Below, one piece after another: positions 10,590-64,000 of a stretch of DNA of 64,000 nt. Origin of the DNA: Candidatus Obscuribacteraceae bacterium (lineage in GTDB: Bacteria > Cyanobacteriota > Vampirovibrionia > Obscuribacterales > Obscuribacteraceae). The notes under the pieces were generated by a model. That model searched no databases. It was not told the DNA's origin and saw nothing but the letters and a program-made list of their open reading frames with translations. The number at the start of each line of letters is the position of its first letter. Position 1 is the first letter of the stretch. Location of the stretch: contig JBGAHS010000008.1 in the NCBI GenBank assembly GCA_044226015.1, forward strand, positions 448,001-512,000. The letters are read 5' to 3'. Made by a program: the position numbers and the translations under genes.

Positions 10590-13500
10590 ATGAGAGCAAA
10601 AAATAGAGCATTCCTTTTGAGTTTATCCCTATCACTGCTAGGTCAGGTCAGCGTTCCGTTGATTTGCAGTGCTCAGGGAGTACGTCCTGGATCAATACCA
10701 TTGTCGCAGTCGAACAACTCTGGAAGCACCACGGTTCCTTCGAATTTGGATCTCAGCTCTACAACAGCTTCCATGGGGGCACAAAACACAAAGCCTGTTA
10801 ACATTCAGGTCGGAGGCAACTCGCTCAATGGCACCATAAGCGGTGGCACATCGCTTACAGTCCTACCAGGACAGCTCTTAACCCCCGCTCAATATCTCGC
10901 GACTCTGGCAGCTATTAATGGGCATCAAACATTACTGTTGAACAATTCGGGGGCAGCGATCGGTGGCTCTGCCATATTGAACGCGAAGACAAGCCCAGCA
11001 CTAAATGGTCTTCTAGTGCCGACGAATGTTAGCATCAATGCGATAGGATTTAACAAAGCGACCCCGCTCAATGTAAGTGGGGTTGTTGATATTTTCGGCT
11101 CTGTTTACGCACTGCAGAACACACAAAATGTAGTTGCATCAATGAACCTCGGTAGCCTCGTAGTAGAACAGGGTGGACTGCTTTCGACAAGGTTACCAGC
11201 TGGATTCAATCTGCCTGGTGTATTCTCATCTGCAGGACTTCAAATCAATACGAGCGGAAACGTATTGAATCATGGCACCATATTCAGTGGCGGCAATCTC
11301 GCAATCAGCGCGGGTGGTGCTATCACCAATCAAACACTGGGGAATCTACAAGCGCAGATAAGTGCAATCAACCTGAGCTTGAATACAGCTCAGGGCAGCA
11401 TCATAAACAGTGGATTGATTCAAGCTAGTCAATCAATGGAACTCAGCGCAGCTCTGGGAAAAGACCTATTCATAGATAATAAGAATGGGCTGATTGAGGC
11501 AACTGGACTTGTAAACGCTGTAACAAAGCTCGTCTCCGAAGGAACAATAAATATCGGAAACATTCAAGCGCCTGAACTTGCGAATGTGAGAATCATCGGG
11601 GGGCAAATAAGTTCTGTTGCTGGTACCAGCATCTACGGCAAGAATATGGATGTATCTGTCGATCGCGTCGATGGAGTTATCAACAACACAGGATCCACAG
11701 CGCATCTGGACGTGAGTGGTGGCAACCTGCTAATAGGCACGCAAAATCTGTCCGGTGATCCAACCTATTTCAACAGCAACGGAGACATTACGCTGACTGA
11801 TACTATCAGCGTCGCAGGCGATCTCGCTTTTGTTGCTTCAGGCAACATTTTAACGACCGGAAAGACTTCAATCCAGACAACGGCTGCAAACAACAGCATT
11901 CTAATGAGTGCTGGATACCAATTCACTACCGATGGACCCGCCAGCGGAACTGATAGCACAACGACCATAACATTTAATGGCAGCGCTGATTCAAGTAAGA
12001 ACATAAGCTCGCCTGGAAATGAGCTGAACATCAAAACTAGCGGCACAGGTACTATCACGCTCATATCCGCAGGGAAGGTGGATCTCGGTACAGGCGTCAT
12101 CAGCAGTCAATCAGGAAAAATAAATATTCTTGGTGCTGGTGGTGTCACTACAAAGGGATCGATAAGCTCTACCGCAGGCAATATTTCGATTGCCTCAGGA
12201 GATGTAGGCAACATAAATCTCATAAGCATTAAAGACGGCACACCAAGCGCGCTTCCAAGCTTGGGTACACTAAGCAGTTTCCCCGTGCAGGTAAGCGACA
12301 TAAGCATAGGTAATGGTCAAACTCTGGATCTGAGTACTGCTGCACAGCTGACAATCGGAAAGGTGACTTCAAATACGAGCAACTTGAATTTCACAGGCAG
12401 CGCAGTCACCATTACAGGTAATGTAGGATCGCTCACTGACACCACCACAATAACGAGTACAGCTGGCGATATCACGGTGCTATACGACCCCAGCCCGGGC
12501 TTGCTTAGTTCGAAACAACTTGTACTTAACAGCGCGGGCAGCATAAATGGCGTAAACAATGACTCGCTTGCATTTCTGGCTGATGTTGCAGACTTCATTG
12601 ATGCTAGCGCAGCGAAATCGGTCTTCATTTCAAATTCTCACACTCTAGGCACACTAAGTGTCAAAGCAAAAGCTGGAACCGGTTTCATAAATTTGAATTC
12701 GAGCAATTCAATCAAACTGCTCAGTGACCTCGACGCGCAAGGCGTCACTTTGCGGGCGTCAAATTTTGCTAATGCCCAAATTGATTTGAATGGTCATTTG
12801 CTTAAGTCTAACGGCAAAGATATTTCTCTTGTAGCTTCAGATATCGTGTTCAACAGTGGCACTATAAATGCGGGAGCAGGAAATGTCTTCGTAATTTCTG
12901 CTCAACCCGACCTACCTATTTCACTTGGCTCTGCAACTGGAGGACTACACTTCAGTCAAGCTGATCTCAAAGCAATCACAGCAAACAAATTGAGAATCGG
13001 ATTCGGCATGAATGGTGGCATGACCATTGGCAACGGAGATGGCACAGGCGGAGCTCTTGTCTTTCCTTATAGTGTCGACCTCTATCAATTCGATGACCCG
13101 GACATTCCGACTGCAGTGGGCAACATAAATTCAGGTGCTATTGGGATAGAAGTATCAGGCAATCTTTATGCCCAGAGCCAAGCTGGCGATATCTCTGTTG
13201 GAAAGATAACTAGCACCACGAATGGAAACGTAACGCTTGTCACCAGTGGTGGTGACATAAACCTCTCTGGCACAAACGGTGCATCTTTGCCGGTCGCGCA
13301 TGAAATCAAATTGCTCGCAGGTGGGATAGGCGTGGGTTCAGCTACTGGCGCTCTCACCGGGCTGGGAAGCGCAGCACTGCTGATAACGCCAGTCGTTGTT
13401 GGAAATGACGCTGGCTCAGTTTACCTTCGAGGCAATAATCTTGGAACAACGGGAAATGTTGGCACCACCGCTGCACCTCTGACAATAGATGTTAGTGCGC

Positions 13501-16500: not shown

Positions 16501-18086
16501 CGAGCACGTATAGCGACCTTACTGCAGGCAGCATCACAATAAAGTACAGCGGGGCGTCTGATTTTAACAAGCTGACTTCGAGCATCGGCGCAATTAGTTT
16601 GACGCAATCTGGAGCGGCGAGCAAAAGTTCGTTCAACGGCATCATAAGTTCGGCAAAATCTGTGAGCATCACAACGACAGGCGATGCGACCTATGGCTCT
16701 AACATAACCGCGTCTGACGGCTCAATAGTCTTGTCTGCTAATACTGGAGTGCTCCAAGTAAGCAATAACGTTTCGATAAACTCAAATGGCACTGGTTCAC
16801 AAATAACATTGATGGAGAAGGCAAACACCAATACGTCAGGCATAGTCATTGGTTCGTTAGTCTCCCTTTCGACACTGGCCAGCTCAAAAACTGGAACCAA
16901 GCTTCCCTTGCCAGGACAAATAAACATAATAATCGGAACGAGCGTGCCTACGGCTCCTGTTCAAAATCCTACGGGTCAACCAGCAAACACAATCATCGAC
17001 ATACAACCACCAACAACTTCAATCAACAAAGTTTACTGGGGCACGAATTCAGGCAAGATTGACTCAAGCGGTGCAAGCGGGGCTGGCAATGAAATAAAAT
17101 TGAGTGTCATTGGAAACAGTGCAATTGTCTTTTCAGCCGGAACAAAAGCTGGTATCACCATTGGTGCCAAAACCACCTTAACGGCAGATCCACCAAGCAA
17201 CATCAATGCTGTGCCAGCTCTGAGATCTTTCCCTTCTGCGGTGCCAGTGGCGCAAGCATTTGCAACACGCTCCTCACAAATTGCTGCACTCGGACAATCT
17301 AACATAGCACCATTGAGTCACCAGAACTCAAAGGCTGACGCTGATATTACATCGTTCTATCAATCGTTACCCTTACCTGGGGCAGCGAACATAACAAGCT
17401 TAGCTGCAGTGAACAGTGCGACAAGATCGCTGTCTTCAACACCCCCGCTCACTTCGTCCAAGTCTGCTTTTACCAACTCAGCATCGGCATTCCCATTGCA
17501 TGGCACAGTGAACAAGCAAGAAAGATTAGGCTCCAACAAGACCCATACAGAGTTTGAACATCGACTACAGACAAGCAGCGGATATGATTACACTCACACT
17601 TTGGAAAATGGTGGCAGATTAATCGCGCCGACCTCAGATATGGTTTTGAAAACGAATCTGGCAGACATCGATATCGCCGCAAAATCCCTGGTACTAATCT
17701 ATTGCAATGACAGCACTCTAGTCGTTTTCAACATCGACGACCACCACAAGAATGCAGTTCGAGTTAAGTTCAACAAACACTGCATTGATGTCCCTGCGGG
17801 ATCACAGCTTTTGCTAAGCGATAAGGTAGAAGAATCATTCGAGAAACTCAATGTGGTTAAAAGAGCTTCCTATCGCAAAATAATCGAAAAGCGCAGCGAT
17901 GATTTGAAGTTTATTTCAGCGGAATTTTCTGTTCCCTCCTTGCTAACGGCAATTTCGAAGATTCGCGGTCTGCTTAACTCAAACAATGCATTTGAAACCA
18001 AGATTGGAAAGCACTTGCTAAAAACGGCAGCAGCATTGAATTCGGTTCGCAAGGACAACAGCGCATTTAGAATGTTGAATGATTGA
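10590..18086 (+). CDS. Giant secreted beta-strand-repeat (hemagglutinin/adhesin-like) protein with C-terminal FecR-like domain
   Basis: 2498 aa ORF with signal peptide MRAKNRAFLLSLSLSLLGQVSVPLICSA-Q. The G/S/T/N/A/I-rich alternating-strand pattern is typical of beta-helix passengers. The charged ~160 aa C-terminal domain (from ~17600) is shared with the other two giants. Confidence 0.9.
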   Translation: MRAKNRAFLLSLSLSLLGQVSVPLICSAQGVRPGSIPLSQSNNSGSTTVPSNLDLSSTTASMGAQNTKPVNIQVGGNSLNGTISGGTSLTVLPGQLLTPAQYLATLAAINGHQTLLLNNSGAAIGGSAILNAKTSPALNGLLVPTNVSINAIGFNKATPLNVSGVVDIFGSVYALQNTQNVVASMNLGSLVVEQGGLLSTRLPAGFNLPGVFSSAGLQINTSGNVLNHGTIFSGGNLAISAGGAITNQTLGNLQAQISAINLSLNTAQGSIINSGLIQASQSMELSAALGKDLFIDNKNGLIEATGLVNAVTKLVSEGTINIGNIQAPELANVRIIGGQISSVAGTSIYGKNMDVSVDRVDGVINNTGSTAHLDVSGGNLLIGTQNLSGDPTYFNSNGDITLTDTISVAGDLAFVASGNILTTGKTSIQTTAANNSILMSAGYQFTTDGPASGTDSTTTITFNGSADSSKNISSPGNELNIKTSGTGTITLISAGKVDLGTGVISSQSGKINILGAGGVTTKGSISSTAGNISIASGDVGNINLISIKDGTPSALPSLGTLSSFPVQVSDISIGNGQTLDLSTAAQLTIGKVTSNTSNLNFTGSAVTITGNVGSLTDTTTITSTAGDITVLYDPSPGLLSSKQLVLNSAGSINGVNNDSLAFLADVADFIDASAAKSVFISNSHTLGTLSVKAKAGTGFINLNSSNSIKLLSDLDAQGVTLRASNFANAQIDLNGHLLKSNGKDISLVASDIVFNSGTINAGAGNVFVISAQPDLPISLGSATGGLHFSQADLKAITANKLRIGFGMNGGMTIGNGDGTGGALVFPYSVDLYQFDDPDIPTAVGNINSGAIGIEVSGNLYAQSQAGDISVGKITSTTNGNVTLVTSGGDINLSGTNGASLPVAHEIKLLAGGIGVGSATGALTGLGSAALLITPVVVGNDAGSVYLRGNNLGTTGNVGTTAAPLTIDVSAPGSTGNGGVASFERTATGAFAPTSASLLLKVSGGSTSGNQGTAVISNNGDLTYNTSAANKSIEYGSGSGNGVSITLSAGNISKGNLLVTGPLDTSANGSDHDGGNITLESNSTTPLAIAMSNTKNGITGLLTLNKTGIGKDGALTIVNRGGNISNTVQNLTAVSKLVFDTSSAATGSITNTKLLGSSSTSEIRISTKGGAINSTAVTLTTQSTGSVYLQTASGAITANIDTGNVSVNTGGSAAATINSIGSNPLNVLSSSVGGSLTITQAGGDLNVTEPIFSGNTLTLKTSKTDAVINVNANLTAGFQFVGFGTMNLQTAGNGSISGTGTLNAKTINLTSGTGSFGTALQALNLTTAQVSLNSSGLVNINNGAYNLDALKISSAKSANNFTLISSNSIVLAAALTNVSKATLQSTNGSLTLSSGIGNSTSTDNITLTAKGSITGAGLLTNSTGKTIALTVQSTTATIGSSSVPINVSGSFITISNSPTASGLINLNSKNTGSSTISGLVTTGSVKLATAGAANFGSNVSGSSVTLNLKDDNNFLGSIAASNGALTLTQTGAGFDTVDVAFALSATSSITIKVAGALAVHDTINSGASLTVTSGGAVNLGLASKSITTTGPISITQTATDVNGSSFGSLSGQSVTVKLKPLSSAVQFLGSITATNGSILISETGLATNTSIASTAKATGDITITSVGPGSFGDITAGDKAGNGAINLTLGDASSLGALSTSGTKGNITIVEKFGKLSFPSATASAAISITNQFVDGIEVSGALAANSKVTIASNGFVSVGGKTSASSKTGLISIAAPGNQYVSLAAVDAPTVTISAGNIGADTLASTPTLLNSASLTFKSLGSVNFNNSGTSLLTIAAASTATNSATVSSQGAISILSPLKTTQSIELSSNSDMLIKATTVGGSSTNKISISANTLTGAGVLKANETSGVIDLKVAANIGTSTSSLKVNAKTVNIANATSVVNVFNQLASTKSTFNVSTTSSPNLILGSAGASTYSDLTAGSITIKYSGASDFNKLTSSIGAISLTQSGAASKSSFNGIISSAKSVSITTTGDATYGSNITASDGSIVLSANTGVLQVSNNVSINSNGTGSQITLMEKANTNTSGIVIGSLVSLSTLASSKTGTKLPLPGQINIIIGTSVPTAPVQNPTGQPANTIIDIQPPTTSINKVYWGTNSGKIDSSGASGAGNEIKLSVIGNSAIVFSAGTKAGITIGAKTTLTADPPSNINAVPALRSFPSAVPVAQAFATRSSQIAALGQSNIAPLSHQNSKADADITSFYQSLPLPGAANITSLAAVNSATRSLSSTPPLTSSKSAFTNSASAFPLHGTVNKQERLGSNKTHTEFEHRLQTSSGYDYTHTLENGGRLIAPTSDMVLKTNLADIDIAAKSLVLIYCNDSTLVVFNIDDHHKNAVRVKFNKHCIDVPAGSQLLLSDKVEESFEKLNVVKRASYRKIIEKRSDDLKFISAEFSVPSLLTAISKIRGLLNSNNAFETKIGKHLLKTAAALNSVRKDNSAFRMLND

Positions 18087-18325
18087 CCCCTAGAGAAAAC
18101 AAGCGCGAATCAGTCAACTGACGGATTCGACGCAGAACGATTAGAAATAGTCACAGGAACGACCTTCTTTGTCGCCCAAAACTGAGCACTGCCAAAGCTC
18201 TCAAGCTCACGAGCCCATCATGCCGTCTTGTAAACTTCCTATTACCAAGATCTTGTCGATGCACGGAGACCGGGACATTTCAGAGTATTATTTAGACATC
18301 TCCTGGATATTCATGGTGGTATGAG

Positions 18326-18892
18326 ATGAACTTAAGTAAATTGTCTAAGGCAGCTGTAATGACCGCATTGGTCTCTATGACAGCAGCCCCGTCTTTCGCA
18401 GCAGGCGCAGCAGCCAACATGTCAGTGAAGGTCGGCTATTTCAACCTCGCTCTTGTCAAAGCTTCCTATCCTGAATCTGCTGGTTCTGAAACACTACGTG
18501 TGCAAGCTGAGAACCAACTTCGCCGCGACGTAGAAGAGGGCAACAAGCGCCTGCAGAAGCTTCAAGAAGATAAGAAGCCAAAAGAAGAAGTTGAAAAAAT
18601 GGCTCAACAACTCCAAGTTGAAATCAACGCTAAACAAAGAGCATTGATTGAATTGGTGCAAAATCAGCAAGCGCAAGCAAACGCGCAGATCGCTCAAGTT
18701 GTAAACACAGTTGCTAAAGAGAAGGGTCTAGACCTGGTATTCGACGGCGCTGGCGTTTTCTCCGGTGGGGACAAGATCATCACCTCAGGCGAAGACATCA
18801 CTGATTCAATCGTCAGAAAGCTGAACCCGATGGCTGCTAAATCAGCTTCGACACCAGCCCCAGCTGAAAAGCCGGCTGCAGAGAAGAAATAA
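18326..18892 (+). CDS. skp: Skp/OmpH family periplasmic chaperone
   Basis: Signal peptide, strand KVGYFN, long Q/E/K coiled-coil and C-terminal VAKEKGLDLVFD..GEDITDSIVRKL, all characteristic of OmpH. Confidence 0.85.
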   Translation: MNLSKLSKAAVMTALVSMTAAPSFAAGAAANMSVKVGYFNLALVKASYPESAGSETLRVQAENQLRRDVEEGNKRLQKLQEDKKPKEEVEKMAQQLQVEINAKQRALIELVQNQQAQANAQIAQVVNTVAKEKGLDLVFDGAGVFSGGDKIITSGEDITDSIVRKLNPMAAKSASTPAPAEKPAAEKK

Positions 18893-18909
18893 GCACTCTG
18901 AAAAACATT

Positions 18910-18944
18910 AAGTCTGCCAGTTGCGAAATTGGCAGACTTTTTTT
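18910..18944 (+). terminator. Rho-independent terminator of skp
   Basis: AAGTCTGCCAGTT-GCGA-AATTGGCAGACTT followed by a T-run, 17 nt after the stop codon. Confidence 0.85.
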
Positions 18945-19026
18945 GTGCTTTGATTCTAAAATGATGGTCTTGGAACATGCTGATGACATCCCATAGGTGC
19001 GCTGCAATCTGGACTGGAGGTTCAAA

Positions 19027-19854
19027 ATGAGCAGACTTTTCCCGCTCCTGGCTGTTTTCATTATTTCGATGAACCCGGCCAGTGCCCAATTCAACATTCA
19101 GACAAAGGATGGTGGGAACGTAAGCATTGGACCAAACGGTATTTCCGTTAACAAGCGCAATAAGAAAATTGATATTAGTCCAGCCGGAATAAACATTGAA
19201 AAGCCCGGAAAAACCGTCGAAGTGACGCCTGATGGAGTTAAAACGAGCAAGAATAAACACAAAAAAGCAGACAAGGATGACACTGAAGCTGTAAGTGGTG
19301 CTGGCAGTACATCGCTGTCTGTCAATGCCGGTAATCTGAGCCTTGACCAGCGCATCACATTGATTGAAATGCATGTTTATGGAAAGAAATCCGACCAACC
19401 GCTAATGCATCGCGTCGAAAAACTTGAGCGAGACAACTTTGGAAAGAAAGGCTCAGGTACGATAGTTCAGCGCATCGATGCTTTATGGAAGGATCTAGCA
19501 CCACCTGCAACACCACAAGATTCCACAATCAACAGTGGAATAGGAATTGGAAGCAGCCCTCTTGAGCTCAGCAAAAAAGACGATTCGCAAGTTCTTACGC
19601 TAAACAACAGCAATTTCGAAGGCGAAATCAAATGCCAGAACAACGACGCAATTCTCAATGCAAGCAATTGCAAGATTAAGTTCCTTGGTCCTCTGCGGAA
19701 ACTCGTCGTCAACGGAAGCAACAACGAAATTTACTGCGAGAACATTCTTGAGATACAAACGAATGGCAGCGGGAATGATGTGTCCTGGAGTGCAGACATG
19801 AAACCATCAGGCGCAGACGCTGGCACATCGAACAAGCTTCATGCGAAAGAATAA
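19027..19854 (+). CDS. Secreted protein with C-terminal DUF3060-like beta-solenoid
   Basis: ATG 19027 follows GGAGG (the ORF track starts at 18997). Signal peptide ends ..PASA-Q. Short repeats VSIGPNGI, IDISPAGI and VEVTPDGV. C-terminal LVVNGSNNEI..IQTNGSGNDVSW..GTSNKL resembles DUF3060. Confidence 0.75.
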   Translation: MSRLFPLLAVFIISMNPASAQFNIQTKDGGNVSIGPNGISVNKRNKKIDISPAGINIEKPGKTVEVTPDGVKTSKNKHKKADKDDTEAVSGAGSTSLSVNAGNLSLDQRITLIEMHVYGKKSDQPLMHRVEKLERDNFGKKGSGTIVQRIDALWKDLAPPATPQDSTINSGIGIGSSPLELSKKDDSQVLTLNNSNFEGEIKCQNNDAILNASNCKIKFLGPLRKLVVNGSNNEIYCENILEIQTNGSGNDVSWSADMKPSGADAGTSNKLHAKE

Positions 19855-55400: not shown

Positions 55401-58400
55401 TGCTTTGCCAGCGCTGCTGAAGGAGATGTCGCCAGATGTGGTACGGACGCCACCGTTACCGCCTCCAGCTGCAGACACGAACAGGTTCATCAATCCAGAT
55501 GAATTGGTGGACGAAGCGCTGAGGCTTCCGGCTTGAACAACGCTAGTGCCTAGAACAGTAAAGGTCATACCAGCTGCACTGTTGCTGGTCAGGGTCATCG
55601 CGTTGGTTACGGTAGTAGTACCAAGCGAGTTTGTGAATGCGAGAGATCCACTGCCGGAGGTTTCAGAGAAAGATGCGCTCGAGAAACTTGCGGAGTTACT
55701 ATAGACTGCCGAGGTTGTGCCACTTATCTTCGCAGCACCGGTCACAGTTGATGAGCCACCGTTGCCAAAACTTGCCTGTCCGGCAGAGGCAGTGACGCTG
55801 AGGTCGCTACCGACTGTCATGGTTCCGTTCTGAGTCACAGATACGGTGGTTCCCTTGAAGGTCGTTGTAGTGCCAGAACTCAGAGTACCAGCACTAGTAG
55901 CAATCAAGCCTGCAGAGTTTTGAACAGTCAGAGCGCCGCCAGCAGTTGCTGTTCCCGAGTTTTGGAAACTTGATGTATTGATGGTCAGGTCAGAGCTTCC
56001 ACCGTTTGCATTCAGAGAGAAGCCAGCACCGATTGTGAGAACATTAGTAGCTGGGGTTGTAGCAGTCAGACTGGTAGAAGAATTGACGTTAACAAACCCG
56101 GTGTTGCCAGACGCGCCATTACCGATAGTGATGTTACCAGCGGTGGCATTAAGCTGAGGGTTGCTGGCAGAGATATTCAAAGTGCCAGTGCCAGCTGCAG
56201 CCTGTCCGCGAATCTGAATTGCATCAGCAGCGCTGGAACCAGAGATGTTCAGTGAACCACCATTGGTATTGATCGTGGACGTGCCAGATCTTACTTCAAT
56301 GATGATCGCGCCAGCGCCATTGTTTATTGTTGTGTTGCTCTTCGAGGTACTTGCCACGAATCCACCATTGCTCAGAACAAGCAAAGGTGTGGTAACAGAC
56401 AGAGGAGCATCAACCACATTGTTAATGGACTGATTTCCTGTTGCAACAATCGAGGTTGAACCGGTAAGCGAAAGACCTGCGCTTCCAACTTTGTAGCTGT
56501 TTGCACCAAGATTGAGCGTGTTAGTTGCATTGGCGGTCACGCCTTTGCCAGCGCCGAAGGCATTGAATGTACTGCCCGTCAGGGTTGTGTCAACCGTGCT
56601 CTGAGCAACTATATTGCCTGAAGTTGAACTCAAGATGCTGCCGGAGATGCTTGTGTTGCCACCAGCTGTAACGTTAATATCACCACCGGAGTTAAAAGTA
56701 GCAGAACTGACGGTGGCATCCTGACCAGCTTTAACAGTTATGGTGCCAGAATTTGCATTAAGAGTGTTACCAGAAATTGAGACACTCTTGGCACCAGTTG
56801 TATTGAAATTCAAATTACCAGTGCTTGAGCTGATGCTACCAGTTCCAGTGACAGAGATGTTACTGGCAGCGTTGACTCCATTGAATATGAAATCATTGGT
56901 TGAGCTAACGACATTATTGTTGCTTAGAGTAGCTGTGCTGGCAGTGTTATTCGTGAGGGTCATCGCAGCCGAAGACTGCAAGGTGCCGGTAGCAGTGTTG
57001 GTGATTGTCCAACCACCACCTGAAGAAGCGTCGACATTGAAATTGCCTGTCGAAGAAATCTTACCAGAGTTAGTCAGAGTACCGCTGAACTCATTGAGAG
57101 CAAAGGCTCCGGCCGATGTAATATTGCCCGAATTGTTGATGTCTCCAGCCCAATTGACATTGATAGGAGCTGCGTTACTCGTATTGATAGTGCCAGCATT
57201 GGTGAAAGTGCCAGTGCTGCCGGAACCTGCTACACCAATTGTCAGCTGACTGTTGGAGTTGATGGCTAGTGTGCTCTGGCTCTGATTGAAATTCTTATTC
57301 GAAGCAATGTTGAAGTTCACATTTGCATCGTTGAAGTTCAAGCTGCCATTGCTAGCAGCAAAGTTAAGATTGCCTGCAGGATTGATATTGAACGCTCCAC
57401 CGGCACTCTTCGAGTTCAGGGTCTCAGCGCCGTTGACGCTTATCGACATTGCCCCAGCACCGTTCGATATGGTGAAGACAGAACCATTTGCACCAGTACC
57501 ATTTATGGTGCCACCGTTGAAGTCGATGTTGCCACTTGTGATGTTGATAGCGGCACCATTGAGGATGGTCTGGGTGCTCGTGTCGGAGAAGTTCACGTTG
57601 CCAGCAACGAAGTTAACAGACTTCGTGCCGCCAACATCATAGGTTCTGCTGCCACCGATGTTGAGCGCATTGGTCGCTGCCAGGGTGATGTCACCTTTAT
57701 TGGAGACGATTGAACCTGTTCCGCTAAGAGTGAGATTGCCAGTCGAGCTAGTTGCGAAACTACCGTCGGCAGTAACACCACCGACATTGTTGATGGTGCC
57801 ACCATTCCAATTGATAGTCATTGTTGCAGACTTGCTTGTGCTTAATGAGCTACCGCCATTAATGGTCAATGTGCCAGTAGCACCATTGATGACCATGTTG
57901 CTGTCTTCGCTGAGCTGTATTTGACCAGCACCAGCACCGGTACCGAAATTCACATTTCCTGCGCCAGATACGCTGATGGTCGGAACAGCATTCGTGTTAG
58001 CAGCACCACCGGAAATCGCGATAGTAGATCCGGCACCAGCTCCCTGGAAGTTGACATTGTTGCCAGCGCTGCCCGGGGTGAACTGCACGTTGCCTGAGCC
58101 ACCGGTGAAGTTGAAACCAACGGTGCCTGTTCCAAGATTCTTCACTGTGAGGTCAGAGCCGGAAGGCGAGGTCACGGTAAAGAGACTGCCAGCCGCACTT
58201 GCATCAAATGAGCTGCCAGTGCTGAGTTCCAATATTGGGGTTGTGACAGTCAGGTTTTTGCCGTTAAGAACCGTTGTAGACTTCGTGTTAACGACTTTAT
58301 TGCCTGCGCCAGAACCTGTGCTCACAGAGCTCGAACCGCCTGCATCTAGCACGACAGAACCTAGAGTAACGACCCCATTGGTGGTCGAGATGCCGATGTT

Positions 58401-61400
58401 GTTGGAGCTTACGAAGCTCGAGCCACCATCGACTGTGACGTCACCGCCAGCTTGCGCAGCTATCGTGAGATCGCCAGCGCTTGCGGTTATCGCAGCGCCA
58501 TTGTTGCTCACGTCGATATTGCCACCGCCAGTGCTTCTGATCGTCGTCACAGCACCGCCCAACGCGGTAGACGAAGCATCGTTTTGAACTTTGAGTAGTC
58601 CAGCACCAGTGGTCAGAATGTCGAGAGTGCCAGTAGCAGCGATGGAACTTGCAGCGCGATTGCGAACCGTCATCGCACCAGCGCCAGATATTGTCAGGTT
58701 AGCACCTGCAGTCAGTCCACCCTGGTTATCAACCGTTCCACCACCCAGAACATTCAGGGTCACCCCAGCATTTTGCGAACTGACCTTTCCGCTGTTGGTG
58801 AGAAGGTTTATGCCGCTCAAGAGAATGTCTGCAGAGGCTCCGCTGGTTTGAATCACGCCAGAAGCGTTGTTGGTCATCGTACCAGCTGTGATATTGATGT
58901 TGCTGTTGTTTCCAGAGGTCTGCAAAGTTCCACTATTTGAGAAGTTGGCAGCTGTGGCAGTGACAGCATTGTTCGAGTCAACAGTGACGCCAGAAGCTAT
59001 AGTCAGGTCATTGCCGCCCAAAGTGAATGTAGAAGCGGCACCACGCAGATTCAATGTAGCGTTAGTGGTAGCGCCACCCTTCTGGATATTCATGCTGGAG
59101 GCAGGGTCGAAGGTAATTGCTCCACCGCCCGACTGAATAGTAGCGCTAGAAGTTGCAACACCATTTCCAACATTTATTGTTGGCACGGTGAAGGTTAGAG
59201 TTGTGGAACCTCCGAGCACGGCAATCTGAGCAGCATCACCGAGCGTCATCGAGCTGCCAGTGACTTGAAGCGCTTTGCCATTTGTTACAGTGACATGAGC
59301 GCCGGTGCCAGCGCCAGCGTCGAGAAGCGCCACGTCACCGTTGAAGTTGACCTGACCAACTGCACCAGCGGTGTCGGGGTTGAGGTTGATGCTGCTGCTT
59401 GCAGCAAAATTGACTCCACCACCAGCGATGCCTACGTTGATAGTTCCAGAGTTGCCAGCGCCGCTGAAACCAACAGTGTTGTTGTTCTGTGCGTTGATGA
59501 CGATGGTGCCGGGCACGCCAATGATTCCAACGTTGCTATAGTTATTGCGAATCAGTATAGAGCCGCCGTTTGCATTATCAACAATCTTGCCGGTTCCACT
59601 CATAATCAATGAAGGAGTATCGATGGTGATGCTGGCTCCGGTTACAGTTTCGCCATTGCCTATGGTGACAGAACCGGTGCCGCTGGTGATCAGCTTAACT
59701 GTGGTGCCTGAGTTGATTGTTCCAACTGAACTAATCGAATTAGAGTTTGTTGTTGTGAGCTGAATGTCATTGCCTGTCAGCGTAGAGCCGCTGGCAGAAA
59801 TATTTCCACCAGTAGAAGTCAGGTACAACTGACCGCTTACTGTAGATGTGTTGAGGTGAATTGCAGAATTCACCTGCCCGATGAAGGCATTACTTGCTGA
59901 AAGTGCGAGGTTGCCCACTTGAGTGCGCAGCGGAATACCGAGAGCTCCGACATCACCACTGGTGGCAGTCAAAGTAGCAGTGCCAGCAGCACCGGTAGTG
60001 ACAAATCCGAGTGCAGAATTTGCAATATTCGAAGCAGTGATGCTGACTGCAGACGCGGTGGCGTTGCTAGTGCCCAGCTGAGCATTCAGGGTCGCAGTAC
60101 CGGTCGAAGAAACAAGGATTGTACCGCTTGTAACTTGATTGCTGGAAACTGTGAATGTGTTGCCTGCTGTAATATTCCAATTGCTTGTTGCAGTTGCTCC
60201 GAGATCAAATGCACCAGCGACGTTACCAAGCTTGATGTCGCCAGCAGTGGCATTCAATCTGATGGTTCCTGGAGTAGCAGCCGCGCCGTTGGCGCTCAGT
60301 CCAATGCCAGTTCCGACGTTTGTGAATTGGCTGCCTTCGATATCGATGTTTCCACCAATCCCTGCGGCATTCGCGTTCAGCCCACCAAATCCGCTAAAAT
60401 CGATTGCACCATCGCCGTTTCCTAGCGCTTTGATGTTGATGCTGCCACCATTTGTGCCGCCGGTTACATCGACGCCGCTTACACCATTGAGGCTGATGCC
60501 TCCATTGCCTTGAGCAGCGATGCCATTGTTGAGAATTGAGACAGTACCACCAGTGCCACCACCAGAGCCCTTAGCTTGAACTGAGAGTCCGCTTATAGAG
60601 AATGGGGTACCAGTTTTGGTATTGTTTGTGAGAGCCACAACACCACCGTTTCCGTTACCGCTTGCATTTGCAGTGATGGCAGCGAGTGCGAATACTCCAG
60701 AGCCCCCCGTTGAGCTGATGGTGACGTTACCAGCAGTACCAGTGCTGCTGTTGGTGCTGATAGCAGTAGAACTGATATTGCGAACTGCAGTTAGCTGCAC
60801 ACTGCCACCGTCAATGGCGCTGACTGCACCACCAGAGATGGTGATATCACGTGATGAACTCACCTTAAGAGTGTTTGTGCCTGTGCTTATGCCAGCAGGA
60901 GAAGCAAGAATTACGTCAGAGCTTGCGCCTGTAGTTCTGAAAGTTGCAGTCGCAGGGTTGCTGCCCAAAACGATGCCACCAGTGCCGCCAGGAGCGATGC
61001 GCAGATTACCTGTGCCTGCTCCAACTGCTACAGCCCCAGCTCCGGTAATTGTTACGGTGCCATTGCTTATGGTGACCAGGTCAAAAGCACCGGTAGCTGA
61101 AGATGTACCAAGGTTTACGCTGCCATCTTGTTGAAGGAAAGCGTCACCGGCATTGGCAACGGCAGTCAAATTGGATGCCTTTGTTTTGAATGGCGAAGCA
61201 ACGCTAGTACCGATGCTAGTTGCAGAGTTCAGGTTCACGTTTACAGCCGACACGCTGCCGGCGCCGCTTATGCCATTTGCCGTTGTGGTCAAATTGATTG
61301 TCTGGCTGCCAGATATGTTCGCAGAAACGGTGATTGCACCGCTAGCCTGCAAGTCAAATACGTTGGAAACATTGAAACCTGCACCAGTTAAATTGATTGC

Positions 61401-64000
61401 GGCAGTTTGAATGAATGCATTTGTAGAGGTCAAGTTCAGAGTGCTGCTGCTAGACAGGTTGAAGCGACTGGCAGCGCTTACTCCGATGTTATTACCAGCA
61501 GTAAAGTCGATATCGCCAACATTAGGGGCAGAACCGCCAGGATTGAGAATATCGCGCCCAGCGTTAACAACGAGCTTCCCGTTCGAATCATTAATAGTGA
61601 ATCTGTTAGCGCCAACAGCACCAATACTCACGTCACCAGTAGCACTGGTTGCAGTCAACGAAATAGTTCCGCCAGTGCCTGTACCTGCGGCATTCAAGGT
61701 CAGAGAAGTTGTTGGTCCAGCAAAAGTAGAAGCAAGAATGTCGATGTTTGCTCCGGCAGAGGCTGTGCCGTTAGCATTTATTGAAGTAAGCGTTCCGAGG
61801 CTCACTACGCCATCGATAGCTCCAGCTGTAGCATCTACCTTGATGCTTGCAGCACCTTTGGTCGCATTCGCGCTGGTGGCAGACAATGAGGTCGCAGCCC
61901 CATTGAACAAGATTCCACCGTTTGCAGCACCATTTCCGTTGTTAGCGATAGTGATGGTGTTTGGTGTATCAGCTGCGCCGGCACCATTTGCGGTAAAGTT
62001 GCCGGAGATTGTAAGGAGTCCACTTGAAGCTGAATTAACAGCGATTGCACCGGCCGTGCCACCTGAGGCAGTAGAGGTGATTGCTCCCAGAGTGACGGTG
62101 CCTGTTTCACCAGCAAGTGCATTAAGAGATATGGTGACCGAGCCACCATTACCTGCAGTACCTTGTGAGTTGATGGTGCCGACAGAAATAGAACCTGCGG
62201 TGTTGGATTTGCCTGCGTTAATGATTACATTTCCGCCAGTGCTACCGGAACTGTTCAAAGTGCCCGTTACAGTGACACTGCCACCGGCTTCAAGATCAAT
62301 AGAATTTCCGTTAGTGATAATTGATTTGCCGCCGCCAGCTGTGAGCACCACGTTTCCGGCACTCGACGTGAAGGTTCCAGATGCAGTAATGTCGCTAGCG
62401 GTCGTGGCGATAGTGAGGTTTCCGGTTCCAGCAATCGGATTTCCAGATACAGTCAAAGCGCCAACGTTGAGCAAGTCATAACTTGTTCCAGCAGAATTGG
62501 TGCCAGAAAGTGTGAGCACGCCTGTGTTCCGTACATACACTTCACCAGCAGCTTTCGCCGAGAGAGTTCCAGCACTCGTCTGCAAGCGTGTGGTCGTTCC
62601 AGAATTACCGATGCTTCCTGCGGCATCAAGTGTCAAAGTAGTGGTCGCGGTGAGCACGTTGGCAGCTACACTGTTGATGTTGCCCGCAGCGCTCGTAGTG
62701 ATGCTGATCGCATTTGCATTCACACCTGCATTTACGTCCACATTTCCTGCGGCAGTTAAAGTGAATTTGCCACCACCATTCAGGTTCACACTATTCAGAG
62801 TTACTGCGCCACCAGCATCTAGAACCAGTTTTCCGCCGCCATTCAGGGTGCCAGAGACGGCCAGACCAGTGCTGTCGGAAACGTTGGCGTTTCCAGATGT
62901 TGCCTTGACGATACTCAGCACAGGAGTAGTGACCAAAACAGGACCGGTTCCGGTGGAATCCGCAATATTGCCAGTGGGTGACGACATCGATAGAGAGGCA
63001 GTAGCAACAATTGGGTTAGCGCCGACTGTCTGAGTGATGCCGCTGTTAGTGTTCAGAACAACCGTGGCAGCTCCGATGCCGCTTCCACTTCCAAATGAAA
63101 TGGTGTTGCCTGCTCCGGCAGAATTGTCGAGAGTTACTGTACCAGTACTATTAATCTGACCATTTACAGCTATGGCTCCATTGAGAACCGAGAAGCCGCC
63201 AGCGGTGGTACCAGCACTGAAGTTATGGCTACCCATGTTCAATGTCGAGCCAGCAAGACTCGTGTAGCCGCCTTGACTTTGAAGAACAATGTCATAGTTA
63301 ACTGTAAGATTATGGCCTGCACCAGGTCCATCAGAGAAGATGCCGCCTCCAGTAAAGGCATTCGAGCCAATCACCAGGGTCTGCGCATTGATGTTAGCCA
63401 ATTCAGTGTCATCGATAACGAGGTCATAAGGCATTCCGGCGCGGCCAAATCCAATGGTCTTGCCGTTTGCGTTCTGCTGAATGTTTACACGCACTCCCGC
63501 ATTGTTAGCGCTGTTTATTGTGCCAGGCATGATGAGATCAACAGTTTGAATAGTCACTTGCTTGTTAGCATTGACAGCAATGTCACCATTTACGGTAACT
63601 GTTCCCGTTCCTGCGGTCTGCAAAATGACACCGTTAGAACCGGTCACAGAGCCAACCGTTATGTTAGCATTGTTGCCGCCAACCAGTGAAAAGACACCAT
63701 TGGTAGCAGTCGCGGTGCCAACAGTCACAGACTTAGTATCTGTGACGTAAGCATCGCCATTCGAGGCAGTGATGTTCAGGGCTGGAGTCGTTGTACCAAT
63801 CGCTGCGCCGGAAGAACCAACTGCAGTAGCAGCCGTGAGAGTCACACTAGTGTCGCCGGTGAGTGCTTTTCCGGCCGCCTGGGTTATCGCACCAGTGAAT
63901 GACTGAACTGTCACTACACCTGTCGTACCGGTGGTTCCAAAATTACCGTTCAGAGCAACTGTTGCTCCCTTCACGCTTGCAGAAAGAGGATTGCTTACAT
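46476..64000 (-). CDS. Giant (>5832 aa) beta-strand-repeat protein with tandem C-terminal FecR-like domains; 5' end outside window
   Basis: The frame stays open from 63974 to the window edge, so the GTG start in the ORF track is artificial. Same composition and C-terminal domain as the other two giants. Confidence 0.92.
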   Translation of the reverse strand, partial: VSNPLSASVKGATVALNGNFGTTGTTGVVTVQSFTGAITQAAGKALTGDTSVTLTAATAVGSSGAAIGTTTPALNITASNGDAYVTDTKSVTVGTATATNGVFSLVGGNNANITVGSVTGSNGVILQTAGTGTVTVNGDIAVNANKQVTIQTVDLIMPGTINSANNAGVRVNIQQNANGKTIGFGRAGMPYDLVIDDTELANINAQTLVIGSNAFTGGGIFSDGPGAGHNLTVNYDIVLQSQGGYTSLAGSTLNMGSHNFSAGTTAGGFSVLNGAIAVNGQINSTGTVTLDNSAGAGNTISFGSGSGIGAATVVLNTNSGITQTVGANPIVATASLSMSSPTGNIADSTGTGPVLVTTPVLSIVKATSGNANVSDSTGLAVSGTLNGGGKLVLDAGGAVTLNSVNLNGGGKFTLTAAGNVDVNAGVNANAISITTSAAGNINSVAANVLTATTTLTLDAAGSIGNSGTTTRLQTSAGTLSAKAAGEVYVRNTGVLTLSGTNSAGTSYDLLNVGALTVSGNPIAGTGNLTIATTASDITASGTFTSSAGNVVLTAGGGKSIITNGNSIDLEAGGSVTVTGTLNSSGSTGGNVIINAGKSNTAGSISVGTINSQGTAGNGGSVTISLNALAGETGTVTLGAITSTASGGTAGAIAVNSASSGLLTISGNFTANGAGAADTPNTITIANNGNGAANGGILFNGAATSLSATSANATKGAASIKVDATAGAIDGVVSLGTLTSINANGTASAGANIDILASTFAGPTTSLTLNAAGTGTGGTISLTATSATGDVSIGAVGANRFTINDSNGKLVVNAGRDILNPGGSAPNVGDIDFTAGNNIGVSAASRFNLSSSSTLNLTSTNAFIQTAAINLTGAGFNVSNVFDLQASGAITVSANISGSQTINLTTTANGISGAGSVSAVNVNLNSATSIGTSVASPFKTKASNLTAVANAGDAFLQQDGSVNLGTSSATGAFDLVTISNGTVTITGAGAVAVGAGTGNLRIAPGGTGGIVLGSNPATATFRTTGASSDVILASPAGISTGTNTLKVSSSRDITISGGAVSAIDGGSVQLTAVRNISSTAISTNSSTGTAGNVTISSTGGSGVFALAAITANASGNGNGGVVALTNNTKTGTPFSISGLSVQAKGSGGGTGGTVSILNNGIAAQGNGGISLNGVSGVDVTGGTNGGSINIKALGNGDGAIDFSGFGGLNANAAGIGGNIDIEGSQFTNVGTGIGLSANGAAATPGTIRLNATAGDIKLGNVAGAFDLGATATSNWNITAGNTFTVSSNQVTSGTILVSSTGTATLNAQLGTSNATASAVSITASNIANSALGFVTTGAAGTATLTATSGDVGALGIPLRTQVGNLALSASNAFIGQVNSAIHLNTSTVSGQLYLTSTGGNISASGSTLTGNDIQLTTTNSNSISSVGTINSGTTVKLITSGTGSVTIGNGETVTGASITIDTPSLIMSGTGKIVDNANGGSILIRNNYSNVGIIGVPGTIVINAQNNNTVGFSGAGNSGTINVGIAGGGVNFAASSSINLNPDTAGAVGQVNFNGDVALLDAGAGTGAHVTVTNGKALQVTGSSMTLGDAAQIAVLGGSTTLTFTVPTINVGNGVATSSATIQSGGGAITFDPASSMNIQKGGATTNATLNLRGAASTFTLGGNDLTIASGVTVDSNNAVTATAANFSNSGTLQTSGNNSNINITAGTMTNNASGVIQTSGASADILLSGINLLTNSGKVSSQNAGVTLNVLGGGTVDNQGGLTAGANLTISGAGAMTVRNRAASSIAATGTLDILTTGAGLLKVQNDASSTALGGAVTTIRSTGGGNIDVSNNGAAITASAGDLTIAAQAGGDVTVDGGSSFVSSNNIGISTTNGVVTLGSVVLDAGGSSSVSTGSGAGNKVVNTKSTTVLNGKNLTVTTPILELSTGSSFDASAAGSLFTVTSPSGSDLTVKNLGTGTVGFNFTGGSGNVQFTPGSAGNNVNFQGAGAGSTIAISGGAANTNAVPTISVSGAGNVNFGTGAGAGQIQLSEDSNMVINGATGTLTINGGSSLSTSKSATMTINWNGGTINNVGGVTADGSFATSSTGNLTLSGTGSIVSNKGDITLAATNALNIGGSRTYDVGGTKSVNFVAGNVNFSDTSTQTILNGAAINITSGNIDFNGGTINGTGANGSVFTISNGAGAMSISVNGAETLNSKSAGGAFNINPAGNLNFAASNGSLNFNDANVNFNIASNKNFNQSQSTLAINSNSQLTIGVAGSGSTGTFTNAGTINTSNAAPINVNWAGDINNSGNITSAGAFALNEFSGTLTNSGKISSTGNFNVDASSGGGWTITNTATGTLQSSAAMTLTNNTASTATLSNNNVVSSTNDFIFNGVNAASNISVTGTGSISSSTGNLNFNTTGAKSVSISGNTLNANSGTITVKAGQDATVSSATFNSGGDINVTAGGNTSISGSILSSTSGNIVAQSTVDTTLTGSTFNAFGAGKGVTANATNTLNLGANSYKVGSAGLSLTGSTSIVATGNQSINNVVDAPLSVTTPLLVLSNGGFVASTSKSNTTINNGAGAIIIEVRSGTSTINTNGGSLNISGSSAADAIQIRGQAAAGTGTLNISASNPQLNATAGNITIGNGASGNTGFVNVNSSTSLTATTPATNVLTIGAGFSLNANGGSSDLTINTSSFQNSGTATAGGALTVQNSAGLIATSAGTLSSGTTTTFKGTTVSVTQNGTMTVGSDLSVTASAGQASFGNGGSSTVTGAAKISGTTSAVYSNSASFSSASFSETSGSGSLAFTNSLGTTTVTNAMTLTSNSAAGMTFTVLGTSVVQAGSLSASSTNSSGLMNLFVSAAGGGNGGVRTTSGDISFSSAGKAATGLNGGVIKSAGQLSVSGTTGLSLNGSTTWLSSGATNFSASSVSFAKSQSQSFGGQVVNLTSPSILLADAAFFGTGANPAGTINVFDGSTGDLTIAGPGVNPTNATFTATNINFGTTTAGKNIVLSGAGTFHVDGASNFTTTGAGAISNPLDLTSNGSITMTSSSITNSQSISTTAGGAITLHASNGSITNNGTLNAAGALTLDGGAAGDLVVNLGAGSSSTGNSVSISTANGNLDLNLTGAASIGSSTGTTIQSLAAGKSLSFNTGGLASYNVTGDLAVNAQGATTVNAGVGVTSTGDQVWTVNGGNTITVNGFISDAKSAGAANLQIRSTSGDLFLAGTGTIQTVTPANQAANAINVSSSGVLNLSGTLTYNTQSVGNGGNVNFSAGQTVVQSGSTQLLSTDGGTISFTQNTLTLFDNTAIGSTAASSNVIIQAQPANNLIIQGANPNTATITTGNTGSISILADAGKTINFHNNSGAAADWFSIHLGSDGSVVPGVTSPAVTIGAPGNSPSPTVEQHVRLFINGTATYPAGIIVDGKIVSNSPLIINITDATNQKVQVTGELSGTSVIISSSDTKAPLQILSSNNATIDQTRPPLLEATSGSFIINAANGVVFKAIDGSSKTALVLASDSGTVVLNSGTGSPANFPIPGPIATPSNPNTTVQISSGATIQVKTNGGGFGDFVFNTTNNGSFINNGQLQVQGNSTFNFTTILGAGTGTLTNSTTGALGSGSTPGMQSQGSVAVNFATGGSVTNTSPMAAGYNLGIPNLLPAGARNVTVQATSGDLSVNNTSSIQAANGTTNLLSFTANAGVSPDSITVSGAGIYDAGTGNVNFNTNNGMHVLSNGTIGSNGSASVYTFVSDSLTLDGGNSIQTGAGISVTAPNGVNLGSGSSISSTGNSLITMTSNALVMGGDNSISTAKISGQGIVIQAPNGDDLSISLSNPKTALSTQGADIIIANKNAGNDVNITGAPGTQLNTTTNNAGTLVIGVNSGNLKNNTGVTADNGMLLEGNIDTVAQGSTPTSGNRADLTFNSSGSFYGGDGKVITMRGNTITINDGAEIFTAGSAGGNNVAFIGNTLNLGVNGANPTLNVSGNAMSFQTNGASNLQVNLGTSGGGIAKIALGSAGAYNFNMAANETVSVNSSFGASTLFLSNGDANFNTSGAAGGVNIGSNQTVRNDGDINMHIDGGTLNNAGNVLTSKANGTIAITSTGDMTISGGGTIKNAGGNVINVNLSSGGILNKITFNGDQTIGDPAGKLPAGGDVSITSGTLAFNNATLSINSAVSSDLNIATDNINVNGNGAIKTSDNPRGITFSPTSQFIVTGNAGSKFSVLTGGKAVSINPTGKTGILFAVRSSELVVDGDLSVVSNSIELASGLGGGKLTLGTAVTSTNVLTLLPDTAVKNVFLGGAGLLGAYSMSSGDFSAIHAATVNIGSQTMTAGIQQDALNVSGVPGVGNAYTLNMATNSASGISNANNGVLSATNASFYARTGGIDVKVAMSSAGANPATLSFVAGKDAKVVNTGVSQLHLSSMPNLFGLSSKQITVGGKFELQSTASAVALDAGKSINFTDASSNTFILAAGGDITRGDNSSLIIFKSSTPSATISTLAGNIGTAADPITFATSAVTPGSSKATLTLSMPGNQPGEVHLQFANKVVTATNIVAASDMSLHVPNITNDFSISSGTQITLTNRNTLDGKAFATTGVTVQNTNIDSGVIDAPVIFLDGKALNPATKLTQHGIANGGAGDHYIYGDAGGLLIKLSGSVGNPGNQTFLNIGSATNALRSTKTIEFDFEGAGYGTAFNLNLNNKVSAEDSMSVTVEHGDLNMPWRGSNSVIDVNGGRIDLNAPFGSVTMDLETALGSVNAIAGGAAIAKPVAPGFFLVDSNGNSVLDTGWDTSHSDLNITVRNNADAKGSSVPVIFGGLGGYMKSTSGSVTIRALDPNQKAANEAAITNGGLIVGGSDLVVQDGTTISAAFNVTIVGTKQITLGNVIEYNVNASPTTQGGSNPVSVGSTPVGITVSAGQFADGFAYDLGKGPSVQQTQMWSTWKNNTNFTGYGKCPLCIPLNMSSTAAGMPFKSVGRVLIDNRNPYNPGAPIFGGVVGSSKDQASGGYQASGSVTGQGPRNIVFGYNVNLTSWGGSLDMNNFNDNGDPSTWSQGTINGGTIINSANSFVAGQKLTLGSYGGNVIVDVANRIVLSAGGGDVSSAKPNNIFSVSMIVPDAKQVVNTFAGVMSNGKAGFLTQTTTFHANGSSSSVTVDCPSCSTASTTTQLIQENPLVIALKTDYGKKAPLDNSALAPGGFEMFNHTGGAVGLYAGVPTGVYPSVNGTPGSTLITPAQQLQFASQQRNAVTLVNVFDNGASPLGFKPAANNFASATSGRTGGLTVVMTEQGPNQNPSGPPENIPGKTITNGNIFNAAGGIIVIDPPAGAGVDLAGATNVYTTSPPIVVASDVPVVIPPGGTVEGVNVIVQTSSNTVPSFNSVGSGIVATDATRTVNIQLQQNAQYLLDQSALKKNAAQATNAYYIAGGACQPFFLEDDDDTMMVGEKGTAFKADNRTVTLQQGKIVAMVGKQPIKVNTGFGDVSVAGNSAAVIQQTADGITRVANLSGNEATITVNRNGEIKTITAKAGEEICLADASLSDEELIPVDGVDREPIVGSITVPGIKIRASKFDQKMMMNKEKLLVCNAGSFYQTRNKIKNLKDKVDKEAKPLAPRPGSGSSPKPLQKSMLELPTIMPAGVGAVTEIGSTEGIGSDDASEAVLKPISFNGSTGVSGSIHTFTTHTAVVKHGKASISFDHPTVMQLTNGEVLVSTDKLTVVKTPHSMVMIQPNTIALVTVADKVTKVRNLWELGHGDIRQLVADGKYVDIAAGEESVLGWDQTGVNRALSKDTMGRRKVRGIPVPNGMYMQRAEVPLPTLMQAENSEFLQDLVNSSNPADKAIANKLVKMAAVLTQVTARHGQFVQVAAPAQKEK

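Follow-up and report, generated by a model that had tools for sequence, protein, structure and literature searches.

Giant putative surface fibres of the Obscuribacterales share a C-terminal domain with a predicted FecR-type fold

The stretch of DNA analysed in this work, 64 kb from the genome of a Candidatus Obscuribacteraceae bacterium (G000:C12:448001-512000; the window hereafter), encodes three giant proteins that end in the same charged domain of ~160 amino acids (aa). This C-terminal domain (CTD) belongs to a family that is massively expanded and is confined to one order, the Obscuribacterales. The giants have a common architecture, consisting of a signal peptide, a head of ~350 aa, a solenoid rich in Gly, Ser, Thr and Asn (G/S/T/N) that reaches up to ~14,000 aa, a charged linker of ~100-150 aa and the terminal CTD. 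We tentatively propose, at somewhat less than an even chance, that these proteins are surface fibres similar to the exoproteins of two-partner secretion (TPS), and that their tail, for which a FecR-type fold is predicted, is kept in the periplasm, where it would serve as an anchor or a stopper. The tail on the giants is an undescribed domain. An entire order of uncultured relatives of the cyanobacteria, non-photosynthetic and common in metagenomes of activated sludge and wastewater, is defined by this family.

A terminal domain expanded in one order

The assembly has a size of 8.19 Mb in 13 contigs and is 92% complete. Open reading frames (ORFs) were taken from stop to stop, start codons and signal peptides were assigned by a heuristic and by eye, and CTDs were located with a hidden Markov model (HMM). 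The giants and their parts lie at the following positions of the window.

10590..18086, + strand: giant 1, 2498 aa, with signal peptide, head, G/S/T/N solenoid, linker and CTD (ORF list, translation)
10590..10673, + strand: signal-peptide-like start of giant 1 (MRAKNR, a hydrophobic stretch, CSA/QG), with an RPGS motif next
10674..11789, + strand: N-terminal head of giant 1, a predicted TPS-like beta-helix with one helix at LTPAQYLA (head alignment, AlphaFold2 (AF2) model)
17598..18071, + strand: CTD of giant 1, HMM residues 2344-2501 of the stop-to-stop ORF, 4 aa before the stop (also by BLASTP)
20004..45908, - strand: giant 2, 8634 aa
20100..20564, - strand: CTD of giant 2 (the sequence folded), HMM residues 8453-8607 of 8638
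44655..45839, - strand: N-terminal head of giant 2 (head profile E 1.1e-125; head alignment)
46476..64000, - strand: giant 3, the C-terminal 5840 aa of an 8137-aa ORF that continues past the window end
46509..46994, - strand: terminal CTD of giant 3, HMM residues 7966-8127 of 8137 (also by BLASTP)
47346..47720, - strand: partial upstream CTD copy in giant 3, beta-sandwich part only (HMM positions 2-123, domain E 1.1e-20)

An earlier note on this DNA, made from the letters and a list of ORFs, had placed three giant ORFs at 10590-18086 (+), 20004-45908 (-) and 46476->64000 (-) and had aligned their ends by eye. Both claims hold up: the C-terminal ~160 aa common to the three giants show 23-25% identity in pairwise BLASTP, with E values of 9e-12, 3e-7 and 4e-16. 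A fourth stretch assigned to the same domain (~47346-47720) turned out to be a real CTD copy, also detected by the genome profile search (E 2.1e-5), although it is partial, lies upstream and covers the beta part only. The change in composition that the note described is general in this genome. Averaged over 46 giants, charged residues make up 7.6% of the body, 14% of the 150 aa that precede the CTD and 21% of the CTD itself, while the share of G/S/T/N decreases from 51% to 39% and 28%. Sec-type signals had been claimed for the two giants that are complete in the window, and both have signal-peptide-like starts. Giant 3 is complete outside the window (8137 aa from stop to stop); it likewise has a signal-peptide-like start, and its head is matched by the head profile at G000:C12:517492-518835, beyond the window end.

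When the CTD HMM was iterated over all stop-to-stop ORFs of the genome, 65 ORFs were found to carry the domain, and a profile search of the genome contigs yielded 68 matches. The best match ends no more than 45 aa from the stop in 61 out of 65 ORFs; the exceptions are one split match, the second half of which reaches to 13 aa from the stop, as well as two partial copies and one internal copy. Eleven of the 65 ORFs contain a second, upstream CTD match. The tails that follow the CTD have a length of 1-40 aa, are polar and contain no hydrophobic segment; a short tag of the PEP-CTERM or LPXTG kind was rejected on account of these tails and the lack of an NCBIfam match. The genome has 65 ORFs of at least 2000 aa, 46 of which carry the CTD. 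With the inclusion of two giants that have only the head, the family amounts to 67 ORFs and 633 kb (the longest member has 14,400 aa), which means that 7.7% of an 8.2-Mb genome is spent on one family of putative exported fibres that is publicly annotated as hypothetical proteins only. Twenty of these ORFs are involved in 11 adjacent pairs. A crude signal-peptide heuristic was positive in 57 out of 65 family ORFs of at least 200 aa; among the eight misses, visual inspection shows a hydrophobic stretch resembling a signal in six, and the other two are low-complexity ORFs whose starts are ambiguous.

Within the order, the CTD profile has matches in 98 of 107 genomes (37 out of 39 high-quality ones among them) and in 36 of 38 genera; there was no match in nine genomes from six other families of the class or in 300 other genomes evenly drawn across the phylum. 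Since relatives share ancestry, these genomes are non-independent samples. A HMMER scan of 1.84 billion cluster representatives recovered 2626 proteins at E<=1e-3, of which 893 also pass E<=1e-30. This library carries no taxonomy, and the 2626 matches are not assignable to lineages and may reach beyond the order; the only source names encountered for such proteins are Candidatus Obscuribacter sp. and a Candidatus Melainabacteria bacterium, with 'hypothetical protein' as the description. In the best 150 of the 2626 matches, 144 end within 25 residues of the protein end and the other six have two or three tandem matches. The domain thus behaves as the earlier note had expected of its HMM: many paralogues, almost always terminal, on proteins with signal peptides and in one lineage. 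Less sensitive searches recovered little. A word-index search for homologues is weak for this family (one match among longer and four among similar-length proteins), and a contig search with a single CTD as query found no relative. Literature searches with order, family and genus terms, which covered mainly titles and abstracts, found no paper on these giant proteins, and the words adhesin, hemagglutinin and secretion do not occur in PMC4040986.

Predicted folds of the two ends

By sequence, the CTD does not fall into any of the sorting or anchoring families described in Pfam or NCBIfam, as the earlier note had supposed. None of 23 CTDs matches any Pfam family at E<=1, an NCBIfam search with giant 1 and with the terminal 500 aa of giants 2 and 3 yielded no family at E<=0.01, and a CTD profile search of PDB sequences gave nothing below E 0.3. 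The proposed fold check by AF2 and Foldseek returned a FecR-type beta-sandwich. The AF2 model, calculated from a 23-paralogue alignment, has a predicted local distance difference test score (pLDDT) of 85.1 and a predicted template modelling score (pTM) of 0.77; it comprises 9-11 strands (~11-121), three helices (123-161) and a short unstructured tail. The top Foldseek matches in the PDB are 4m0n/4m0h, a putative FecR-family anti-sigma factor, and 6ovk, the C-terminal cell-surface signalling domain of PupR (E 4.9e-4 for 4m0n to 3.9e-3, probability 1.0). A VIA structural search gave 4m0h_A at Z 9.0 (101 aa, root mean square deviation (rmsd) 3.4) and 6ovm_R at Z 8.3 (97 aa, rmsd 2.9), followed by a next row at Z 3.6. 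At the sequence level, only the upstream copy of giant 3 is picked up by Pfam FecR, with a score of 17.1 bits where 24 are required, and hhalign aligned the CTD in register over 84 columns with the four Pfam-positive FecR ORFs of the genome (E 0.0051, probability 7%).

The CTD is therefore predicted to be a very divergent FecR-fold sandwich in which a helical addition replaces the STN/DUF4974 subdomain. Across paralogues the near-invariant core consists of R103, K153, E120 and the EFS.PS and LLKTAA motifs, and the LLKTAA motif is located in the helical addition. Like the FecR/PupR regulators (4m0h/4m0n, 6ovk/6ovm; PF04773), the CTD has a predicted beta-sandwich over ~100 residues and occurs on exported or periplasmic proteins. 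Unlike them, it is accompanied by neither a cytoplasmic anti-sigma domain nor a transmembrane helix, has three helices in the model where they have STN/DUF4974, scores below the PF04773 gathering threshold or does not match it (0/23), and stands at the end of giant fibres. Such a fold, as far as the model goes, points to periplasmic docking or retention more than to a translocated signal. It also offers a testable handle for finding partners, for studying how giants are tethered to diderm envelopes and for recognizing such proteins in metagenomes. The four Pfam-positive FecR ORFs (G000:C8:121123-…, C7:689500-690279, C1:1008300-1009574 and C7:691947-693338) are small signal-peptide proteins without an anti-sigma domain, which indicates that this lineage uses the canonical FecR fold outside sigma-factor signalling too.

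For the other end of the giants we used a head profile (first ~420 aa) that was run on the N-terminal 700 aa of every ORF. When hmmsearch was applied to whole ORFs it missed the heads of the longest giants, which were seed members of the profile, because of a scoring artefact on very long low-complexity sequence; when the search was restricted to the first 700 aa, every one of these heads was detected. Giant proteins of low complexity are better surveyed for domains in segments. The head was found in 50 ORFs, of which 48 carry a CTD, and it is present in all 48 CTD ORFs of at least 1400 aa. The varied passengers that the earlier note had foreseen were not encountered: the passengers are one expanded family, and, given the same head in 48 out of 48, the constant C-terminal position of the CTD can be inherited architecture. 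The other two head-bearing giants, at G000:C10:420507-429710 (3068 aa) and C10:433146-442262 (3039 aa), have an acidic tail in place of the CTD (…DDGLEF and …DDGLEDDLQSL); they are natural controls. Conversely, 17 CTD ORFs of no more than 1227 aa have no head. Those inspected consist of a signal peptide, low-complexity sequence (TSP repeats, NNQFANNNNG repeats or a run of ~22 prolines) and one or two CTD copies, for example G000:C11:156590-160270, C4:407763-411065 and C9:607531-608469, and their existence implies that exported proteins use the CTD as a self-contained module. The phyletic pattern of the head is that of the CTD, with matches in 15/18 and 3/3 genomes of the two families of the order and 0/9 outside it; two genomes carry the CTD and lack the head. 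Over the 48 paralogues with both ends, head and CTD distances are loosely correlated (Spearman 0.143, a value reached in 4 out of 999 permutations), the nearest paralogue is the same by head and by CTD in 16/48, and mean pairwise identity is 24.7% for CTDs vs 34.1% for heads.

The AF2 model of the head (pLDDT 91.9, pTM 0.87) is a beta-helix with a single helix at a conserved LTPAE motif. In a VIA search over 48,161 chains the top three matches are the secretion domains of HMW1 (Z 19.1), HxuA (Z 18.9) and EtpA (Z 17.4); these are aligned from the very N-terminus and their identities, 14-20%, are the highest in the list. In the ESM Atlas, 29 out of 30 feature matches of the head fall in the filamentous-haemagglutinin (FHA) set, with a low recognition score. 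NPNL and NPNGI motifs are conserved in TPS domains, and NPN[LG] occurs in 0/50 heads (first 450 aa). The Pfam TPS domain PF05860 matches 0/22 heads at E<=1 by hmmscan, and a genome search likewise found none, its positive control also giving no match; three of the 22 heads show sub-threshold matches to haemagglutinin repeats. We read the head as TPS-like in its predicted fold and not as a TPS member by sequence criteria. The earlier note's statement that no TPS-like feature is seen is accordingly right for sequence motifs and Pfam and needs correction for the predicted fold. On this model the head may be no less likely than the CTD to hold the export signal. A further observation on the head concerns an RPG[S/A/T] motif directly after the predicted signal cleavage site (AQG-RPGS), followed by N(L)DLSS, at window positions 10674-10700; RPG follows the signal region in 30/50 heads and could be a second recognition or processing motif.

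Outer-membrane route and competing readings

The envelope of this organism is diderm, as a bamA-skp-lpxD cluster is present. Diderm-type envelope genes are also described for Melainabacteria in PMC4040986. We searched for the transporter that would be expected for TPS-like proteins. The ShlB-type TpsB family (PF03865) was found neither in this genome nor in the 21 other genomes of a first sample of the order. Across the order, 12 out of 107 genomes give weak partial matches (19.9-25.2 bits, model positions ~105 to 309). The ORFs concerned have 689-769 aa, as would be expected of BamA, apart from one of 328 aa; these matches may be cross-hits to BamA. As a positive control, PF03865 matches 7/9 sister-family genomes, five of them over the full length (G022, G025, G026, G028 and G030; E 7e-19 to 1e-31), which shows that the TpsB search works; the giants are absent from these five genomes. 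Omp85 (PF01103) is present once per genome in 19 out of 22 genomes of the order and never twice, vs one to three times in the sister families. Three POTRA domains are recognised in the only Omp85 of this genome; skp and lpxD come after its gene, and BamA is its best NCBIfam model, below the cut-off of that model. TPS-like fibres with no detectable TpsB, in an order whose sister families have TpsB, would suggest an unknown outer-membrane route, or BamA or a secretin in a newly ascribed role. If it is true that a TpsB-independent route underlies the fibres, this would be categorically new.

The genome encodes two secretins, one PilQ-like with the only STN domain of the genome and one orphan RcpA-like protein of 893 aa, and neither is in an operon with giants. 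The orphan secretin (RcpA/CpaC-like, G000:C7:127562-130243) has no pilus or type II secretion genes within ~9 kb. Of the 21 other genomes of the order examined, 20 contain matches over most of its length, often as tandem pairs; identity is 53-85% in those with a listed N-terminal match. In the sister families there is either a match to the generic secretin domain alone or no match at all. A 4822-aa giant is 1.7 kb away from the orphan secretin in this genome; by comparison of coordinates, the secretin does not adjoin giants in the relatives. As kin share genes anyway, the orphan secretin as a conduit is a lead, not evidence, and it is the sole lead to the specific outer-membrane family whose co-occurrence with the domain the earlier note had predicted. 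Clustering of the ORFs within 8 kb of the 65 CTD genes gave Ser/Thr kinases, histidine kinases, response regulators and TPR proteins as recurring neighbours. A four-member neighbour family of 631-646 aa was considered and rejected as an outer-membrane candidate, since its many hydrophobic segments resemble those of inner-membrane transporters by eye. No recurrent envelope partner emerged from eight neighbourhoods in a 2.9-Mb relative (G019) either, where RND efflux, HerA-like ATPases and housekeeping genes were seen. A sortase-like peptidase, translocon or periplasmic protease linked to the loci was not found in the window or in the neighbourhoods examined. Other standard routes that the earlier note had declared missing were not detected here, either: a classical autotransporter (type Va) was rejected in view of the lack of a Pfam match in giant 1 or the last 500 aa of giants 2 and 3 and a C-terminal model made of a sandwich and helices, and there was no Pfam match to RTX repeats in the parts scanned, which include the solenoids of giants 2 and 3 in part. 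Its alternative scenario of a standard TPS head with a TpsB elsewhere in the genome has a parallel in the TPS-like predicted fold of the head, and fails on the Pfam TPS domain and the full-length TpsB, neither of which was detected.

In the anchoring mechanism that we tentatively favour, the head would engage an outer-membrane channel after Sec export, and the solenoid would be extruded through this channel to fold on the outer side, in the manner of two-partner secretion. The linker, with its higher charge, would bridge the channel or the periplasm, and the globular CTD would fold in the periplasm, where it could not pass the channel and would stop or dock the fibre at the cell. We count in favour of this mechanism the diderm envelope and a linker that is more charged than the solenoid. 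It gains further support from the periplasmic location of the characterised FecR-fold domains known to us and from TPS precedents for a C-terminus retained in the periplasm, namely the FhaB prodomain, the HMW1 C-terminal tether and CdiA secretion arrest. In their overall logic the giants work most like TPS exoproteins (HMW1, HxuA, EtpA, FhaB, CdiA): they share with them a Sec signal peptide, a giant beta-helical shaft, the frequent occurrence in tandem or convergent arrays (here the adjacent pairs) and heads whose best structural matches are TPS secretion domains. Yet they fail three criteria of that group, the Pfam domain, the motifs and TpsB, and BamA is their only Omp85. To our knowledge, no TpsA protein carries a FecR-fold CTD. 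Giant adhesins of type I secretion (LapA, MpIBP type) are alike in logic, as a folded terminal plug too big for the channel tethers a repetitive fibre; they differ in that the plug is N-terminal and in that export bypasses Sec, using a TolC-like pore and an RTX signal at the C-terminus, whereas the giants have an N-terminal signal peptide.

Several results weigh against periplasmic anchoring. A full-length ShlB-type TpsB is present in 0 out of 107 genomes of the order, and with one Omp85 per genome the TPS analogy is left without its defining transporter. No recurrent outer-membrane partner was found near the 65 CTD genes. The TPS-like matches of the head are followed by generic beta-helices at Z 16.4, so that the lead of the TPS domains is modest (FHA itself has Z 15.1), and Foldseek on the head gave nothing significant. 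At the other end, a predicted FecR-like fold alone shows neither the location nor the function of the CTD, and the kinship with FecR is weak by sequence (17.1 bits in Pfam, 7% probability in hhalign). Finally, a role as sorting signal fits the phyletic and positional pattern equally well. In that case the CTD would be a true C-terminal signal, comparable to the CTD of type IX secretion (T9SS), that addresses proteins to a dedicated undescribed outer-membrane translocon and is then removed or used for attachment, covalent or non-covalent, which we regard as doubtful but worth serious consideration. It is consistent with the terminal position in 61/65 ORFs and in 144 of the best 150 global matches, with dozens of paralogues per genome restricted to one order, with the CTD on 17 head-less signal-peptide proteins whose low-complexity N-terminal parts are unrelated, with the loose co-inheritance of head and CTD (compatible with a shuffled module), with the lack of a detected standard export route and with the existence of an order-specific orphan secretin. 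The T9SS CTD is likewise a C-terminal module of beta-sandwich size on signal-peptide proteins, with many copies in one lineage. It differs in that its cargo consists of diverse enzymes and that of the giants of essentially one family with a conserved TPS-like head; the T9SS CTD is not among the fold matches, the tail has no Pfam or NCBIfam match to it, and we know of no T9SS in this phylum. Two head-bearing giants do entirely without the CTD, the FecR fold is known from periplasmic binding domains and not from translocated tags, and neither a sortase-like peptidase nor a translocon candidate is linked to the loci. The earlier note had gone further and proposed a sorting or anchoring signal for a new pathway; the pattern of position, number and lineage agrees with it, while the uniform cargo, the TPS-like head and the predicted periplasmic type of fold do not. 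Its full form, in which an undescribed export or anchoring system with a non-Omp85 channel, e.g. the orphan secretin, has replaced the TpsB route in this order and the CTD is its sorting or anchoring signal, we judge unlikely.

The remaining explanations place the CTD elsewhere or give it another task. It might be the business end of the protein, displayed distally on the fibre as a sensor or as a tip that binds ligands or cells, with the head staying at the cell as proposed for mature FHA. The CTD is the only globular charged module besides the head, it is more diverged than the heads (24.7% vs 34.1% identity), as expected of an exposed and diversifying part, and beta-sandwich copies occur in tandem in 11/65 ORFs. 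This is distinctly unlikely in our estimation, as the near-invariant core (R103, K153, E120, EFS.PS, LLKTAA) suggests one common partner rather than varied ligands, the non-solenoid linker of ~100-150 aa and a FecR-type fold would suit a periplasmic module better, and the short proteins in which only low-complexity sequence separates the signal peptide from the CTD would have no fibre for its display. A periplasmic pro-domain or a module for the timing or quality control of secretion, degraded after export like the FhaB prodomain, would draw on the same evidence for a periplasmic location as the anchor, on the FhaB precedent and on an extra skp paralogue between the CTD ends of two giants. We consider it highly unlikely; no periplasmic protease is linked to the CTD genes in the window or the neighbourhoods examined, and sequence cannot separate a pro-domain from an anchor. 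That the giants never cross the outer membrane and form a periplasmic or cell-wall matrix, the CTD being an ordinary periplasmic interaction domain, is very improbable. The lack of an assignable outer-membrane transporter and the periplasmic location of the FecR fold in known cases would agree with it, but beta-helix rods of 2,500-14,400 aa far exceed the width of the periplasm, and dozens of diverging paralogues with a TPS/FHA-like head are typical of surface fibres.

Gene neighbourhood of the giants

Giants 1 and 2 are convergent, giants 2 and 3 are arranged in tandem, and two smaller genes lie between the 3' ends of giants 1 and 2.

18326..18892, + strand: skp/OmpH paralogue (Pfam OmpH E 3.9e-12)
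18997..19854, + strand: 285-aa protein with a signal peptide and a weakly DUF3060-like C-terminus

The earlier note's placement of skp inside the cluster is confirmed by the OmpH match. Upstream of the giants, Pfam identifies a three-subunit enzyme of the xanthine-dehydrogenase type and a HEAT-repeat protein, and two ORFs are without a family. One of the ORFs in this region, of 591 aa (7472-9247), has no signal peptide and no family match; its N-terminal two thirds are of low complexity and rich in His, Ser, Lys and Gln, and are followed by a hydrophobic region rich in Gly and then by a coiled-coil-like tail. A gap of ~1.5 kb (5914-7471) separates the HEAT-repeat gene from the ORF that comes next; it contains no ORF longer than 137 aa on either strand and no Rfam match, and Rfam gave no match anywhere in the 64-kb window. 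The public runs include no RNA entry for positions 16500-21500. In the 2.9-Mb relative, a 6342-aa giant (G019:C129) is flanked by three ORFs of ~960-1090 aa that have a HerA-like DUF87 ATPase domain. The genome has four skp/OmpH paralogues, at 18326-18892 of the window and at G000:C4:385321-385692, C8:343631-344026 and C8:393667-394062. Only one of the four is part of the canonical bamA-skp-lpxD cluster and the two C8 copies are not near giants, while the window copy sits between the CTD ends of two of them.

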